Shown here: piece by piece, positions 1 through 14,242 of the stretch
Layout: each line of letters opens with the position of its first letter
How positions within the stretch are numbered: position 1 is the stretch's first letter
IMG/VR virus record: IMGVR_UViG_3300009709_000023
Span: 1 to 64,000 of that record
Direction: 5' to 3' (one strand)
DNA length: 64,000 nucleotides
Source: a virus
Lineage: Duplodnaviria > Caudoviricetes
The notes under the pieces: model-generated
Told to the model about the DNA's origin: nothing
Seen by the model: the letters and a program-made list of their open reading frames with translations, nothing else
Database searches by the model: none
Position numbers and translations under genes: made by a program

Positions 1-120
1 CAAGAAAATTTTTGTTTTTTTGTAAAAAGACCTTTTTTCCTTTATAAATCAAACACTTAGGTCTTACAAAAACGGAAAATCAATTTTGTAAAGAAATTTT
101 ATTTACAGAAAATTTTGTAA
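1..120. repeat. AT-rich non-coding end region with short direct and inverted repeats
   Basis: AATTTTGTAA at 82-91 and 111-120; TTTTTGTAA (17-25) inverted to TTACAAAAA (64-72); AAGACC (27-32) inverted to GGTCTT (60-65); no ORF. Confidence 0.5.
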
Positions 121-300
121 TCAAGTATTGACACCTGCGTCCCTAAGCTTTAGCAAGACATAGCAATGCCGGTTCAAGCTTATTTAAGGGTATTAGGAGC
201 CGCTGGAGAACAGAGGTAGTACCGTATCATACCCCAGTGTCTAAAACCTCTCAAAACGTCTTTAATGACGTTTAATAGGCTTCAATAAATTTTCAAAGGA

Positions 301-309
301 TGGTATAAG
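301..309 (+). promoter_or_regulatory. TGGTATAAG early-type promoter box upstream of the RT locus
   Basis: Exact copy of the motif found upstream of most plus-strand gene islands. Confidence 0.65.
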
Positions 310-315
310 GAATAT

Positions 316-660
316 AGGATCTGAGATAACTTAGGTTGCATGCATTGAACTTGATTTTTCTTAGGTCGATTAGGCTCAGTACTTCATATTACAAACTTAA
401 CCACAGTTCCTTGTGGCACTGAGCTAACAACTACTATTATTCTGTTGAGTACTAAAGATGTTCCGTTTCCTGAAAATTATCAAATGTGTCTATAAGATTC
501 TCACTGCTGTCCACGCATTTATGGGCAGTACAATTCCTGTGCTTGAGGAGATGGCCAGGAGTTTGCCACAAGTGAGTGTAATCGCATAGCACAATCGTGC
601 GGGTTATCAGTAGTCTTCGGATAGCCCGTTAACTTAACTGAGGTAGTAACTACCTTAAGG
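316..660 (+). ncRNA. Candidate structured leader/ncRNA of the RT locus
   Basis: Stems GCTCAGT 374-380/ACTGAGC 418-424 enclosing CCACA/TGTGG; ACTGC 503-507/GCAGT 525-529; GCAC-AATC-GTGC 589-600; CGGGTTATC 600-608/GATAGCCCG 620-628; AGGTAG 641-646/CTACCT 650-655. Confidence 0.45.
458..589 (+). CDS. Possible 43-aa small protein (MFRFLKIIKCVYKILTAVHAF...)
   Basis: ATG-TAG ORF inside the leader, amphipathic N-terminus, no clear Shine-Dalgarno. Confidence 0.25.
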   Translation: MFRFLKIIKCVYKILTAVHAFMGSTIPVLEEMARSLPQVSVIA

Positions 661-669
661 ATGATTCCA

Positions 670-1221
670 ATGTTCGCTAAAGCTCTTCCCCCGTCACCTA
701 CTCCGAAGATCTCTACCGATAATTTCGAACCGATGGGGAATTACTTCATTGTTCGTCAGAACCGGCGGTATCATTACTTTCCGGTGAAGGTTGAAAAACA
801 TCCGCCTAATGCACCGACTCCCATTCTCAGATTTGAGAAGGCACCACCGGTTTTGATGGAAGGATGGGTAGTAACCCAAAAGCGGGTCTATCTTGTTACG
901 GTGCAGGACTTACTCCGTGGCATTATCAGAACAGCTAACGAATATCGATTTGAAAAGGAGAAGAGCAGTGATACCACTGAAACAACCAACTCTACTAGCC
1001 CCAATTCTGCCAACAGGATTGGTCAAAGTAGTGCAGATCCCAGGCCGGGAAAGACAGCGGCCGCAGTTTCAGCCCCTGCCTATGCAACAGACGTTTTCAG
1101 TTTCGTCGAACCAGGAACTCTCGAAGCTATTGGGGTGGAAAGTCACGACGCACTTGACCGGCTTATGTCTGAGCAAGAACAGTCATTACACGACACTGAG
1201 AATTCCCAAGAAGAGTGGTAA
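670..1221 (+). CDS. Hypothetical protein, RT-associated (overlaps RT 5' end)
   Basis: ORF 661-1221; TAAGG SD at 656-660 fits ATG 670; globular-looking N-half, S/T-rich low-complexity C-half. Confidence 0.55.
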   Translation: MFAKALPPSPTPKISTDNFEPMGNYFIVRQNRRYHYFPVKVEKHPPNAPTPILRFEKAPPVLMEGWVVTQKRVYLVTVQDLLRGIIRTANEYRFEKEKSSDTTETTNSTSPNSANRIGQSSADPRPGKTAAAVSAPAYATDVFSFVEPGTLEAIGVESHDALDRLMSEQEQSLHDTENSQEEW

Positions 1222-2035
1222 GATGAGAACCTTGCATAGTCCAGATCCGGCTATGCGGACTGCTCAACTTCTTATTCTTCGGAAGGTTCTTGATAAGGCA
1301 ATCATTCCAGATTATATCTGTTCCTTCGAAAAAGGACGATCAATTCCGGATATGGCTGCCCGTCATGTTGGTAGAGATGTTGTTATCAGTGTGGATCTCG
1401 AAGACTTCTTTACAAGTATTAAGCAACATCACTTGGTAGATGTTTTCGAGAAACTGGGGTTCGTAGAGAAAGCAGGGAGAACACTTTCTGAGCTTTGTAC
1501 CTACGGACCTTTTGTACCACAAGGCGCTTTGACAAGCCCAAAGATCAGTAATCTGGTTAGTGCAATGACCTTTGGACCTATCCTGGACAATTACTGCAAA
1601 CGAAAGAATGCAGTTTTAACCATATACGCAGATGACATTACAGTCTCCTTGAATAACGCAACTCGTGAAGACGTCTCTGAAGTTCTTCGAACAATCACTC
1701 AGACTGTACGTACTTTCGGCTTCGCAGTTAACACGGATAAGACAAAGGTAATGTGGCAATCCAAACGCCAGTATGTCTGCGGTGCCGTAGTCAATGAGAA
1801 ACTCACTCTTCCAAAGAAAGAGCGACTCAAACTACGGGGTATTGTTCATCGGATAAAAATGAATGGAATCGATGTTGAGGCTGAGAAAGCCGAGAAGACT
1901 CCGTCTGAGTTTCAGTCCTGGTTAGTAGGTAGGTTGAATTGGTACCGTCAACTTGACCCACTCCGGGCTGAACCTCTGATTGGTGAATTAAAGATGTACC
2001 GTGAGTTGTATGGAAACTTAGCCGAGGCGGCTTAA
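1082..2035 (+). CDS. Retron-like reverse transcriptase (~317 aa)
   Basis: HYTTLRIPKKSGKMRTLHSP, DLEDFFTSI, PQGALTSP, YADD catalytic motif, MAARH at the retron NAxxH position, VCG at the retron VTG position; first in-frame ATG at 1082. Confidence 0.9.
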   Translation: MQQTFSVSSNQELSKLLGWKVTTHLTGLCLSKNSHYTTLRIPKKSGKMRTLHSPDPAMRTAQLLILRKVLDKAIIPDYICSFEKGRSIPDMAARHVGRDVVISVDLEDFFTSIKQHHLVDVFEKLGFVEKAGRTLSELCTYGPFVPQGALTSPKISNLVSAMTFGPILDNYCKRKNAVLTIYADDITVSLNNATREDVSEVLRTITQTVRTFGFAVNTDKTKVMWQSKRQYVCGAVVNEKLTLPKKERLKLRGIVHRIKMNGIDVEAEKAEKTPSEFQSWLVGRLNWYRQLDPLRAEPLIGELKMYRELYGNLAEAA

Positions 2036-2080
2036 GTACAAATCATCAAGTTTCTTTTTTGGTTTGAATAAGAAGTAAAA

Positions 2081-2200
2081 GTACCGCTAAGGACTTCACT
2101 CTCGATCCGATTGGCCCAGTCTGCGCAGGCTGGAGGGGTGAAGTCTGGTACATCTCAATCTGGTGATGTTTGCCTGACTCCAGGCCGAAAGGCCTTTCTT
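2081..2200 (+). ncRNA. Compact structured RNA downstream of RT, ending in a terminator-like hairpin
   Basis: GTACC 2081-85/GGTAC 2147-51; 11-bp stem 2092-2102/2135-2145; CCAGTCT-GCGC-AGGCTGG 2116-2133; CATC/GATG 2151-2168; AGGCC-GAAA-GGCCT 2182-2195 then T-rich tail; G-U pairs favour the + strand. Confidence 0.6.
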
Positions 2201-3304
2201 TTAGCCTAATTGGACTCCAGACGAAGTGACATTTGCAAAATGCCCCCCAAACGTGTTATACACACCGCTGCTTGTAAGTTGTGTTTCTGCACCGGAACTA
2301 TGAGTCAAAGTAATATTACTACCAGTAATGTTCACAGTTTGTTGATTATTAAAATTTAGATCGATGCTATTAGCATTGACGGTAACAGTTTGTTGATTGT
2401 TGAAATTCAATTCAATGAGATCAGCATTGATTGTCACAACTTGCTTGTTGTTGTAGTTCAAAACGATTTGGCTACCAGTCTGACTAATAGTTGTTGTAAC
2501 GCCCCCAACAGTAATAACCTCTTCTTTATCCCCAACCATATCCAGTGTACGATGGAAAGTTTCTGTTCCCGCATTCAGAACCTGTTCTTTGTAAATGATA
2601 GTATTTGCGGTACCGCCTGATCCAGTAGAACCTGATTTGATAGCCTCTGCCATTACAGTGTCACCGTAATAGAAGTTCATTGAGTAGTTCTCTGTCGTAG
2701 CATCGGTAAAGTCATTGGCATAACCAGTGTAGCGAAATACCCTACCTCCGATGTTGCGCATCACATCTGAGCAGACATCCGAAAAATGTATGAAATTTCG
2801 GCCGACAATTTTAACAAGATCATCCATCTTTGAGATAAAAATTGATGCAAGACTTGAGCTTTTGAAAAGTAAAGAGCCTCCTCTGAGGATGGCAACAATT
2901 CCACCGCCAAAACTTCCAAGCACCCGGTCACCTACAACCATGTCGGTGGGTTTGTTTTGATTTGGAACAGAATTACCCGACTGGGCTGAAGTATAGTTCC
3001 CAGTATCAATGGAAGTACCGGATGCGATAGACGGAGGGTATGCCGATTCTGTGGTTTGCATTTTTGGCAAAGATCCAATAATCATTGGATGTCCTAAGCC
3101 AGAGTCAATAACAACCCTATCCCCCATATGCGGCGTACAAGTATCTGATCCTCGGGTTGATCCCCCCGTTGACATAAGCCAAGGAACGCCAACTAACCGT
3201 TGACCAGTTGTTGTTGTGATATTGGCTACAAGGCGGATAGAATCGACGGAAGTGACAATGCCTTCGTTCATTGTAGCAAGAGGGGTGGCAGGATTAGAAA
3301 ACAT
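2201..3304 (-). CDS. Baseplate hub/central spike (gp5/VgrG-like)
   Basis: N-terminal OB-fold-like GVPW...P..GDRVVI pattern; C-terminal beta-repeat (LNFNNQQTV x2); lies beyond the tail genes. Confidence 0.6.
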   Translation of the reverse strand: MFSNPATPLATMNEGIVTSVDSIRLVANITTTTGQRLVGVPWLMSTGGSTRGSDTCTPHMGDRVVIDSGLGHPMIIGSLPKMQTTESAYPPSIASGTSIDTGNYTSAQSGNSVPNQNKPTDMVVGDRVLGSFGGGIVAILRGGSLLFKSSSLASIFISKMDDLVKIVGRNFIHFSDVCSDVMRNIGGRVFRYTGYANDFTDATTENYSMNFYYGDTVMAEAIKSGSTGSGGTANTIIYKEQVLNAGTETFHRTLDMVGDKEEVITVGGVTTTISQTGSQIVLNYNNKQVVTINADLIELNFNNQQTVTVNANSIDLNFNNQQTVNITGSNITLTHSSGAETQLTSSGVYNTFGGHFANVTSSGVQLG

Positions 3305-3381
3305 TGGTATAAGAAAAATAGGAGATGAATTACTTCGTCTCGTCTGAATTTTACCCTTTTACTTTAGAAAGGTCCTAACAA

Positions 3382-4104
3382 ATGGCTTTGTACGAAATTC
3401 ATTTAACTATTGAGAAGACTGACCAGGTCGAACATTTTCAAAATATTTGCCAGGCTCTTGGATTGAAACCTTTATTGCTTAACCTTCATTTTTATGCCAA
3501 CAAGTTAACAGGCGGTACAAAGAAAGATGTACCTAACATGATGACAAGTTCTGTCTTTTATGGTAAGTATTATGATGATGTTGCGGCATTTTCGGATACA
3601 CTGGCATATAAATTGAATTCATGCGGATTTAGGGTTATTAGAACTAAGATCGAAACTCCCTTTGATAGTTCTCTGGATGAAGATAGACCTATTCCGGTAT
3701 ACTATGAAGCCCATCAGAAGTTAACTCTGGCGGATGACGTTGAAGATACGTTATGGTTCCCTATTAAAAACGGCATTCACGAAAATTTAAAAATATACAA
3801 AGAAAGAGAAGTTCATCCTCAACCATTTAAACTTTACATCCCTCATCTTAGTAGTAACTCTTTAAATTCTGATAATGGTACTAGATCTAGAATGGTAACT
3901 TGGAGAACAGGGTTATCAAATACTGATAAAACTAAAATTGGTTTAAATAAATGGCCTAATAATTTGGAGCTATCTATCGCAGAATTTGCCAAGTTCGTAA
4001 ATTACGCTTTTGGAAATTCCGTCCATATGGGTAAGATAATAAGGGAAAATGTAATTTTTGATAGTAATAAAGCTGTAGAACAAGAATGGGCACCAATTAA
4101 TTAA
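3382..4104 (+). CDS. Hypothetical protein (240 aa)
   Basis: Long ORF after TGGTATAAG box at 3305, with SD-like AAGG. Confidence 0.8.
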   Translation: MALYEIHLTIEKTDQVEHFQNICQALGLKPLLLNLHFYANKLTGGTKKDVPNMMTSSVFYGKYYDDVAAFSDTLAYKLNSCGFRVIRTKIETPFDSSLDEDRPIPVYYEAHQKLTLADDVEDTLWFPIKNGIHENLKIYKEREVHPQPFKLYIPHLSSNSLNSDNGTRSRMVTWRTGLSNTDKTKIGLNKWPNNLELSIAEFAKFVNYAFGNSVHMGKIIRENVIFDSNKAVEQEWAPIN

Positions 4105-4161
4105 GTCTTGTGGATACATGACGTTGTCATGTATAATGTGTTATTAACTATTAATTTATAT

Positions 4162-4725
4162 ATGACAACTGATCCTGAAGCTCCAAAGGAATTCTTTACT
4201 TCCGATACCCATTACGGGCACAAAAATATTATCACCTATTGCCATAGACCTTGGACAACCGTTGATGAAATGGACGAAGGTCTAATTACCAATTATAATG
4301 CAGTTGTACGTCCCATTGATACTTGCTATTTTCTAGGGGATATTTCCTTTTATGAAAGCTTTGAAAAAACTGCGTCTTTAGTTGGTCAGTTGAACGGCAA
4401 TAAAATTTTGGTTTATGGTAATCATGATTGGAGATTCCGAAAGGATTATCCAAAGATTTTTCAGAGTTGCTGGGATTATTATGAATTACGTCGTGGTCGG
4501 CAGCTCTACGTAATGAGTCATTATCCAATGCTGTCTTGGAACAAAGGCCATCATGGAAGTCTTATGCTACATGGACATAGCCATGGCTCAGTCAATGCTG
4601 AAAACGCTGGCACAAATAGATATGATGTCGGCGTAGATAGCAACGATTACAGACCTATTTCATTAGATGAAATCACCGAAAGAATTAATGCTCTTAAAGT
4701 GGTTTCAAAAGAATCAAGTGAATAA
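4162..4725 (+). CDS. Calcineurin-like metallophosphoesterase
   Basis: TSDTHYGH, LGD, GNHD, SHYP, HGHSH motifs; start moved to ATG 4162 because TGTATAAT lies just upstream. Confidence 0.9.
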   Translation: MTTDPEAPKEFFTSDTHYGHKNIITYCHRPWTTVDEMDEGLITNYNAVVRPIDTCYFLGDISFYESFEKTASLVGQLNGNKILVYGNHDWRFRKDYPKIFQSCWDYYELRRGRQLYVMSHYPMLSWNKGHHGSLMLHGHSHGSVNAENAGTNRYDVGVDSNDYRPISLDEITERINALKVVSKESSE

Positions 4726-4764: not shown

Positions 4765-5319
4765 ATGGGCATATTCAAACCTTTAGAGCCAGGTTCAACA
4801 CATGGCCGAATCACAATATTATTCAATTATATAAGCAACGCACAACGAAGGCTTAATTCCAGATGTGTATGTGAATGTGGAGTTTTATTTAATTCCCATA
4901 CAAGAAATATACGTAACGGTATTACTCAATCTTGTGGTTGCTTACAAATAGAAAAATCTACTGAAGTATTCAATGAGTACAATAGAAAATACAAAGAAGA
5001 ACGAGGCTTAGACCCGGATATATTATTAAGAGATCAGAATACTCAAGACAGAGTTCTGTTCATGGAAACAGTTGGAAGAAATACAAAAATAAGAGATAAG
5101 TACACATGTCTATTATGTGGACTGCATAGTCGAGAAATGTCTTCCCACCATATTAGTCCTTGGGTATCTGATAAAGAAAATAGATTCAATTATCTGAATA
5201 TAGCGACTCTTTGTAAAGAATGTCATTTACACCGAGTACATAAAGGTAATACGACACAAGAACCAGATTCGGAATTAACCAAGATACTCATTGAAAAGGT
5301 AGCAGAAAAATACAAATAA
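4765..5319 (+). CDS. HNH endonuclease with CxCxCG N-terminal domain
   Basis: CVCECG, SCGC; CLLCG...SHHISPW...NIATLCKECH. Confidence 0.8.
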   Translation: MGIFKPLEPGSTHGRITILFNYISNAQRRLNSRCVCECGVLFNSHTRNIRNGITQSCGCLQIEKSTEVFNEYNRKYKEERGLDPDILLRDQNTQDRVLFMETVGRNTKIRDKYTCLLCGLHSREMSSHHISPWVSDKENRFNYLNIATLCKECHLHRVHKGNTTQEPDSELTKILIEKVAEKYK

Positions 5320-14215: not shown

Positions 14216-14242
14216 GTCCCGGTTTATAGCCGGGATTTTTTT
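14216..14242 (+). terminator. Intrinsic terminator
   Basis: TCCCGG/CCGGGA stem followed by T7. Confidence 0.75.

Follow-up and report, generated by a model that had tools for sequence, protein, structure and literature searches.

The stretch of DNA analyzed here (the window; 64,000 nucleotides) is the first 64 kb of an 82.9-kb virus record that is ~47% complete. Near the start of the window, on the + strand, lies an operon that consists, in this order, of a promoter-like box (TGGTATAAG), a structured leader, a 43-codon ORF, a short hairpin, a 186-codon partner ORF and the gene of a retron-type reverse transcriptase (RT). The next gene after the operon is convergent, so that the folded region that is the subject of this work fills the entire gap of 165 nt from the RT stop to position 2201. 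The genes and the box are the following.

301–309, + strand: promoter-like box of the RT operon, an exact copy of the 9-mer TGGTATAAG; the same box is found 5' of every related operon
458–589, + strand: small ORF of 43 amino acids, amphipathic, the first gene of the operon, taken from the ORF list; a similar ORF occupies the same place in relatives
661–1221, + strand: partner ORF of 186 amino acids, conserved in 24 related loci
1082–2035, + strand: retron-type RT of 317 amino acids from the ATG at 1082, with the YADD motif present; Pfam RVT_1 and PADLOC retron models
2201–3304, − strand: convergent gene

Homologues of the RT align from the ATG at 1082, and the gene is therefore placed at 1082–2035, overlapping the partner ORF by 140 nt in a different frame. 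The best match among the PADLOC retron RT models is type III-A (7e-59), the type XIII and Ec107-like models are matched as well, and the scores improve with the N-terminal extension; all best matches among solved structures (PDB) are retron RTs, with Ec86 at 3e-30. By these sequence matches, the RT belongs to the retron clade; its score stays below the curated NCBIfam cut-off of every named retron family (143.5 bits versus a cut-off of 235). Among its motifs, VCG stands in place of the usual retron VTG, and MAARH in place of NAxxH; YADD is kept. In cultured phages, the closest RT is only 29% identical, and a blastn search against phage records produced no match.

The partner protein has no match in Pfam, and its structural model predicts a small beta-barrel, a disordered linker and a C-terminal helix; comparison of this model with the PDB using Foldseek gave no match at E ≤ 0.001, and the best VIA-align Z score was 4.7. 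The small ORF is predicted as a 43-amino acid gene in two more distant relatives (L144/L145) as well. Exact copies of TGGTATAAG number 12 in the window, compared with ~0.5 expected, and all 12 are on the + strand (positions 301, 3305, 11368, 12786, 14255, 28915, 35849, 45224, 46228, 52016, 54185 and 61989). The genes of the − strand must rely on another signal. The copies are usually followed by nAAAGTA, and the motif is phage-specific and promoter-like, with the look of an extended −10 element.

The convergent gene has one distant homologue with a Pfam baseplate-V domain, and the search for its homologues yielded no additional close contigs. A few genes past the RT operon, 4108–4725 encodes a calcineurin-like phosphoesterase and 4765–5319 an HNH endonuclease. 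Positions 1–116 of the window are repeated, inverted and 100% identical, at the far end of the record (G000, 82739–82854, − strand), and many related contigs stop 400–1400 nt upstream of the RT operon, beside repeated TTGGACA(C) motifs; the inverted repeat and the contig ends may be an assembly artefact or a genuine feature of genome ends.

The gap between the RT and the convergent gene contains a Y-shaped RNA element that starts 46 nt downstream of the RT stop, flanked by less conserved sequence and followed by a terminator.

2036–2080, + strand: U-rich spacer with a conserved T-run (2051–2060) and a non-conserved pseudo-box TTGAATAAGAAGT (2064–2076); mean pairwise identity in alignments 0.51
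2081–2151, + strand: Y-shaped RNA element (Y element), 71 nt, from the minimum-energy fold, the RNAalifold consensus and covariation
2081–2085/2147–2151, + strand: closing helix of the Y element, 5 bp, GTACC/GGTAC, from the sequence and fold
2086–2090, + strand: bulge of 5 nt, from the fold
2091–2102/2135–2146, + strand: 12-bp helix, from the fold
2103–2115, + strand: internal loop of 13 nt, CGAUCCGAUUGGC, invariant, from the fold and alignment
2116–2122/2127–2133 (2116–2133), + strand: apical hairpin, 7 bp with a GCGC loop, from the fold
2151–2168, + strand: small hairpin, CATC (2151–2154) with GATG (2165–2168) and a 10-nt loop, from the sequence; variable, identity 0.27
2182–2205, + strand: intrinsic terminator of the RT operon, with hairpin AGGCC-GAAA-GGCCT (2182–2195) followed by TTCTTTTAGC; the only terminator-like site predicted in the region

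When the + strand of 2076–2156 is folded alone, the minimum-energy structure is exactly the Y element (−31.2 kcal/mol, z-score −2.99), and none of 200 shuffled sequences equals it; for the − strand of the same segment, the z-score of the fold is −0.70. The structure is retained when 2036–2205 is folded and lost with 2036–2215 (z-score −1.37), in which the loop pairs instead with 2205–2214, beyond the terminator; relatives do not conserve this pairing. An earlier note on this DNA had listed a series of stems in the gap, and all of them are found, namely, GTACC/GGTAC, an 11-bp stem 2092–2102/2135–2145, which lengthens to 12 bp via G2091·U2146, the tetraloop hairpin, CATC/GATG and the GAAA hairpin with its T-tail. 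The four G·U pairs that the note considered compatible with the + strand alone are real as well (G2091·U2146, U2100·G2137, U2102·G2135 and U2120·G2129) and become A·C mismatches on the − strand. The small hairpin at 2151–2168 is replaced by a different hairpin in L070 and L071, two of the close relatives described below, and by none in a third, L069.

Several other candidate features of the gap were rejected. A 23-codon frame from GTG 2138 is non-coding, given that the region is 27% identical among the relatives, with indels. A pseudoknot between the loop (2109–2114) and the loop of the next hairpin (2155–2160) is kept in L070 and absent in L071 and L069. A duplex between the small ORF and the flank (548–568 with 2136–2157, −23.8 kcal/mol), with a core of 6–8 nt (GAGGAGAUGG/AUCUC), is partial in L071 and absent in L069. 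The 9-nt complement between 1992–2000 and 2147–2155 is not conserved, and the 11-nt complement between 1267–1277 and 2066–2076 is of a length that occurs at chance frequency.

The wider family of this operon includes ~35 loci from IMG/VR and JGI contigs, with RTs 41–54% identical to that of the window, and closer loci come from a large protein collection (RT identity of 84% for L070, 83% for L143, 82% for L069, 81% for L071, 62% for L072/L073 and 61% for L144/L145). In all four closest relatives (RT identity 81–84%), the same element occupies the same place, directly 3' of the RT, so the position assigned to it in the earlier note holds beyond the window. The covariation set consists of five sequences only, the window and these four loci (L070, L143, L069 and L071; RTs 81–100% identical). 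Across the five loci, 97.4% of the pair cells are paired, compared with 39–48% in slid controls, and six pairs are changed on both sides, a number reached by one of 500 shuffles, with 0–1 such pairs in the slid controls; the covariation backs the fold described in the note. One locus, L143, has an extra G-C pair inserted on both strands of a helix, in L069 the bulged closing helix is replaced by a continuous 18-bp helix, and two U·G pairs never vary. The same consensus fold is independently predicted by RNAalifold.

The constraint on the element extends to the sequence. Positions 2099–2119 (21 nt) are invariant in the five loci; for comparison, in the RT gene of the same loci, 17% of the third positions are invariant, and the longest invariant run is 8 nt. 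Broken down by part, identity is 100% in the internal loop, 77–83% in the helices, 27–51% in the spacers and 61% in the terminator. By this alignment, the Y element is more strongly constrained in sequence than the RT gene. Taken together, the fold, the covariation and the constraint in relatives indicate that the element is a selected + strand RNA and not a chance fold. The claim that the gap encodes a discrete + strand RNA far exceeding the needs of a terminator accordingly stands, on the strength of the z-scores of the two strands, the separation of the domain and the covariation.

The terminator itself overlaps the stop of the convergent gene. The combination of a hairpin, a T-run and AGC(C) recurs at the terminators at 14238, 14804, 47141 and 54643 (+ strand) of the window, and the T-run with the AGC tail also follows nearly all related RT operons, even in front of a + strand gene; 2182–2205 is therefore simply the operon terminator. 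A reading in which this genuine terminator is all there is in the gap, possibly bidirectional and shared by the RT and the convergent gene, with the upstream stems being due to chance or aiding termination, is barely tenable. On the − strand, a short U-run does come after the large helix (GGUAC followed by UUUUACUU), but it is not conserved in L070, L143 and L069, and given that the wobble pairs are mismatched on that strand as well, a terminator role for the convergent gene is unlikely. Furthermore, the terminator hairpin is a structure apart from the Y element and less well conserved (identity of 0.61 versus 0.77–1.00), and the invariant U·G pairs turn into A·C on the − strand, where the z-score of the fold is only −0.70. 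Thus, the covariation and the strand asymmetry already contradict the reduction of the gap to a terminator.

At greater distances, the plan of the element persists with other letters. In L072 and L144 (RT identity 61–62%), there is a closing helix, a conserved loop on the 5' side containing AACUAUAAUAAU and an inner hairpin, the stem of which covaries (CGACGA/UCGUCG versus GCAGAA/UUCUGC); in L144, the local closing helix is still AAGUACC/GGUACUU. The loop sequence, accordingly, switches together with the RT lineage. The conservation of the loop within a lineage, along with the covariation of the helices, implies that the unpaired loop is the lineage-specific part of the element and the helices are the scaffolding. 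In keeping with this narrow distribution, a covariance model (R1) run over the window and 38 loci found only its five source loci, with one copy in each, and the GTDB genomes contained no match in a 21-mer scan. A 15-mer scan of IMG/VR gave 69 matches, none in the context of the element; the few that passed the context filter sit in GC-rich, coding-looking sequence and are thus chance matches. Neither a second copy nor a complement of the invariant loop is present in the 82.9-kb, ~47%-complete record. The Rfam search suggested by the earlier note came back empty: cmscan of positions 1–3500 of the window at E ≤ 1 produced nothing but an irrelevant snoRNA match elsewhere; ARAGORN detected no tRNA or tmRNA. 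The Y element is a new RNA motif, specific to its lineage, in a retron-like RT operon of a phage.

The Y element is located 30 nt upstream of the terminator, and no U-run follows it on the + strand. The earlier note regarded it as separately transcribed or processed and pointed to a loose likeness of 2064–2076 to the box. The likeness exists inasmuch as TTGAATAAG (2064–2072) matches TGGTATAAG at 7/9 positions; it does not extend to a match with ≤1 mismatch, and it is not conserved, the letters in L070, L143 and L069 being unrelated. Furthermore, no promoter, either of the phage's own type or of the sigma-70 type, is predicted in 2036–2080, and the proposal of separate transcription loses its footing with the pseudo-box. 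Because the pseudo-box is not conserved and no promoter is predicted, the simplest reading, and a probable one, makes the element the 3' UTR of the mRNA for the small ORF, the partner and the RT. The same two observations weigh against a small RNA that would be transcribed independently, from a promoter of its own, and would act in trans on phage or host transcripts. Small RNAs usually have such a shape, compact and ending in a terminator hairpin with a U-tail, and a U-rich stretch lies just upstream, but no target complementary to the invariant loop is found in the 82.9-kb record (only 47% complete). This explanation is very improbable.

A location in the 3' UTR just before the terminator fits an element of mRNA 3'-end stability or processing that would be independent of the RT and would either block 3' exonucleases or be cut by a double-strand RNase, leaving a protective hairpin. 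The stacked helices of the Y element (12+5 bp and 7 bp, with an asymmetric loop between them) may resemble phage processing hairpins, e.g. the T7 RNase III sites; no retron-style branch G is conserved; and some relatives manage without any element. The difficulty is that, in such elements, shape suffices, yet sequence is kept here too: a stretch of 21 nt that contains the unpaired loop never varies, against 17% invariant third positions in the RT. Moreover, the other terminators of this phage are devoid of any such extra domain, and the loop sequence changes with the RT lineage. This explanation is the main rival to the one favored below; it accounts for the shape and the position but not for the 21 invariant bases and, on balance, seems possible but rather unlikely.

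The sister lineages differ in the pairing of the RT 3' flank. There, in at least nine other subclades, a perfect complement of 11–14 nt links this flank to the 5' leader, ~1.6–1.9 kb away, with the leader arm located 16–35 nt past the promoter box; complements of this length are reached by 0–2 of 60 shuffles. The sequence of this operon-spanning helix differs by subclade (e.g. CTCGAAGAAGCAG/CTGCTTCTTCGAG, CTCCGGAAGCAG/CTGCTTCCGGAG, CTCGTAAAGCAG/CTGCTTTACGAG, TCTCAGACCAGA/TCTGGTCTGAGA and TTGTTTATGTACC/GGTACATAAACAA). The helices resembling the a1/a2 pairing of retrons are the following.

L001, 185–197 with 1855–1867: a1/a2-like operon-spanning helix
L003, 2407–2418 with 4085–4096: a1/a2-like operon-spanning helix
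L014, 342–353 with 2058–2069: a1/a2-like operon-spanning helix
L020, 228–239 with 1940–1951: a1/a2-like operon-spanning helix
L033, 1895–1907 with 3732–3744: a1/a2-like operon-spanning helix
L038, 1890–1900 with 3589–3599: a1/a2-like operon-spanning helix
L042, 1602–1612 with 3232–3242: a1/a2-like operon-spanning helix

Given the complement in at least nine subclades, the region 3' of the RT functions as an RNA partner in this RT family. In the window, L069, L071, L072 and L144, the longest complement between the leader and the flank is 7–9 nt, which is the chance level (reached by 9 to 54 of 60 shuffles); in the window itself, it is 8 nt (16 of 60 shuffles), and the best duplex, at −19.6 kcal/mol, is within the range of the shuffles. 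In the RT tree, the loci with a locally closed element, including the window, form one clade (support 96/93); the backbone of the tree is unresolved, so that the direction of change cannot be read from it. Six loci (L026, L030, L035, L040, L041 and L044) have an ORF or a bare terminator after the RT, without an RNA element, and hence a 3' element is not universally required.

A subset of the sister loci, denoted group A, has an RT 3' element of 300 nt in which two covarying helices interleave (CACUU/AAGUG and GCAGU/ACUGC, or variants of these) and, judging from the pairing pattern, look like an H-type pseudoknot; the element also has an SD-like GGGAGAG, with a short variable frame after it.

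L001, 1747–2060: group A RT 3' element
L003, 3976–4290: group A RT 3' element
L014, 2019–2200: group A RT 3' element

In L004 (1338–2441), an extra base near the end of the RT carries the RT frame ~80 nt into the 3' RNA element, either through a sequencing error or as a natural frameshift.

The 5' part of the operon is structured as well. The leader at 318–425 contains a first hairpin, the 3' strand of which, CUUAGGU, is repeated ~40 nt downstream (UUUUUCUUAGGUCG), and a Y-shaped domain closed by GCUCAGU/ACUGAGC, with a topology similar to that of the 3' element; the closing helix covaries (GGCAUUGC/GCAAUGCC in L069, UCUCCG/CGGAGA in L071). No RNA feature of the operon is more widely conserved than a hairpin at 641–655 (AGGUAG-UAA-CUACCU), which directly precedes the ribosome site of the partner ORF; nearly all family members have it, with covarying stems and a loop of the GUAAC/GUUAC type.

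These observations bear on the proposal of the earlier note that the element is a template and primer of the RT. In its explicit form, the Y element would be a self-contained minimal retron-like RNA, separately transcribed or processed, in which GUACC/GGUAC serves as a1/a2, the bulge G primes, and the 3' strand of the 12-bp helix is copied. The RT is of the retron type, the base after the closing helix is a G in the window, L143 and L071, the sister lineages have an a1/a2-like helix that uses the 3' flank, and the monophyly of the locally closed clade fits a priming helix that has moved. However, L070 has a U at the place of the priming G and L069 lacks the bulge; the element has only ~70 nt, without separate msr hairpins; and there is neither a conserved promoter nor an Rfam retron match. 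Given that no branch G is conserved, the template/primer role is unproven, and the structured 5' leader, which is in the canonical retron position, is an equally good candidate for the template. Such a role for the Y element is unlikely, and so is, to the same extent, the corresponding evolutionary scenario, in which the retron priming helix, operon-spanning in the sisters, has moved in the window lineage to a local position and created a ~70-nt primer-template RNA 3' of the RT.

The explanation that we favor, tentatively and short of even confidence, is that the Y element is a lineage-specific RNA recognized by the RT of the operon, by the partner protein or by both. It would share a transcript with the RT, running from the TGGTATAAG promoter at 301 to 2182–2205, and would provide a docking site for one or both proteins, with the helices holding out the invariant 13-nt loop CGAUCCGAUUGGC and the adjacent invariant CUGGAGGGGU for recognition. 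In evolutionary terms, the element would be this lineage's version of the RNA arm that lies 3' of the RT; in the sister lineages, the partner of this arm is the 5' leader of its own mRNA, and here a local helix closes it. Retron RTs require a cognate structured RNA, and an invariant loop presented on covarying helices at a fixed place, the switch of the loop together with the RT lineage and the use of the flank in the sister lineages make the element look like a specific protein-binding site. Against this, no G beside the closing helix is conserved, six family members lack an RNA element after the RT, and processing or stability elements look like a helix-loop-helix of such size. The true RNA partner of the RT may instead be the 5' leader, which is structured and covarying, or the widely conserved hairpin at 641–655, and the covariation of the Y element rests on five sequences.

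Retron-type RTs are known as bacterial defense enzymes with an upstream template RNA. Hundreds of contigs of uncultured large phages carry a retron-type RT in a three-gene operon of its own, and in the lineage of the window, the RNA that is most tightly conserved with the RT stands after the gene. With its 71 nt and an invariant 13-nt loop, the Y element offers a short experimental handle on what a phage retron-like RT binds and copies, and it raises the question of why the sister lineages join both ends of the operon mRNA and the window lineage does not. If the element were a template, it would be a very compact scaffold for DNA production in cells. If the priming helix has truly moved, this would be, to our knowledge, the smallest retron-like ncRNA and the first one located 3' of the RT, serving a large phage of the lytic type and not a bacterial defense system.

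Among the known systems, the msr-msd RNA of retrons (Retron-Ec86/Eco1) is similar to the Y element in being a structured RNA beside a retron-type RT, with a terminal closing helix, and in keeping its fold despite fast sequence change between lineages. The counterpart of the a1/a2 feature, namely, the closing helix, exists and covaries, the next base being G in three loci. The differences are that the Y element is downstream of the RT, with a different structured leader holding the upstream place, and that it comprises ~70 nt, compared with 150–250 nt, without separate msr hairpins, a conserved branch G or an Rfam match. Furthermore, its operon is carried by a phage and not by a bacterial defense island, and the neighboring proteins are no known effectors.

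The RNase III sites of T7, such as R1.1, presumably share with the Y element the stacked helices, the asymmetric internal loop and the location at the 3' end of a phage mRNA, before or at the end of the transcript. Sites of this type are defined by shape; in the Y element, in contrast, no base varies over a stretch of 21 nt made up of the unpaired loop and its flanks. A Rho-independent terminator is matched by the last hairpin (2182–2195) and its U-tail, from which the Y element is separate and independently conserved.

In the Type VI retron Retron-Vpa2, the inverted repeats of a hybrid RNA (hyRNA) enclose both the template and the coding sequence of a small toxic protein (bioRxiv 10.1101/2025.10.22.683967). 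The operon described here is similar to that of Type VI in the succession of a small hydrophobic protein, a middle protein and a retron-type RT, and the sister lineages share with the hyRNA the inverted repeats, of 11–14 nt, that enclose coding sequence. The window clade, in contrast, has no enclosing repeat (7–9 nt, the chance level). The partner is modeled as a beta-barrel plus a helix and may differ from the helix-turn-helix partner of Type VI, the RT scores higher with the type III-A/XIII models than with type VI, and the Y element comes after the RT.
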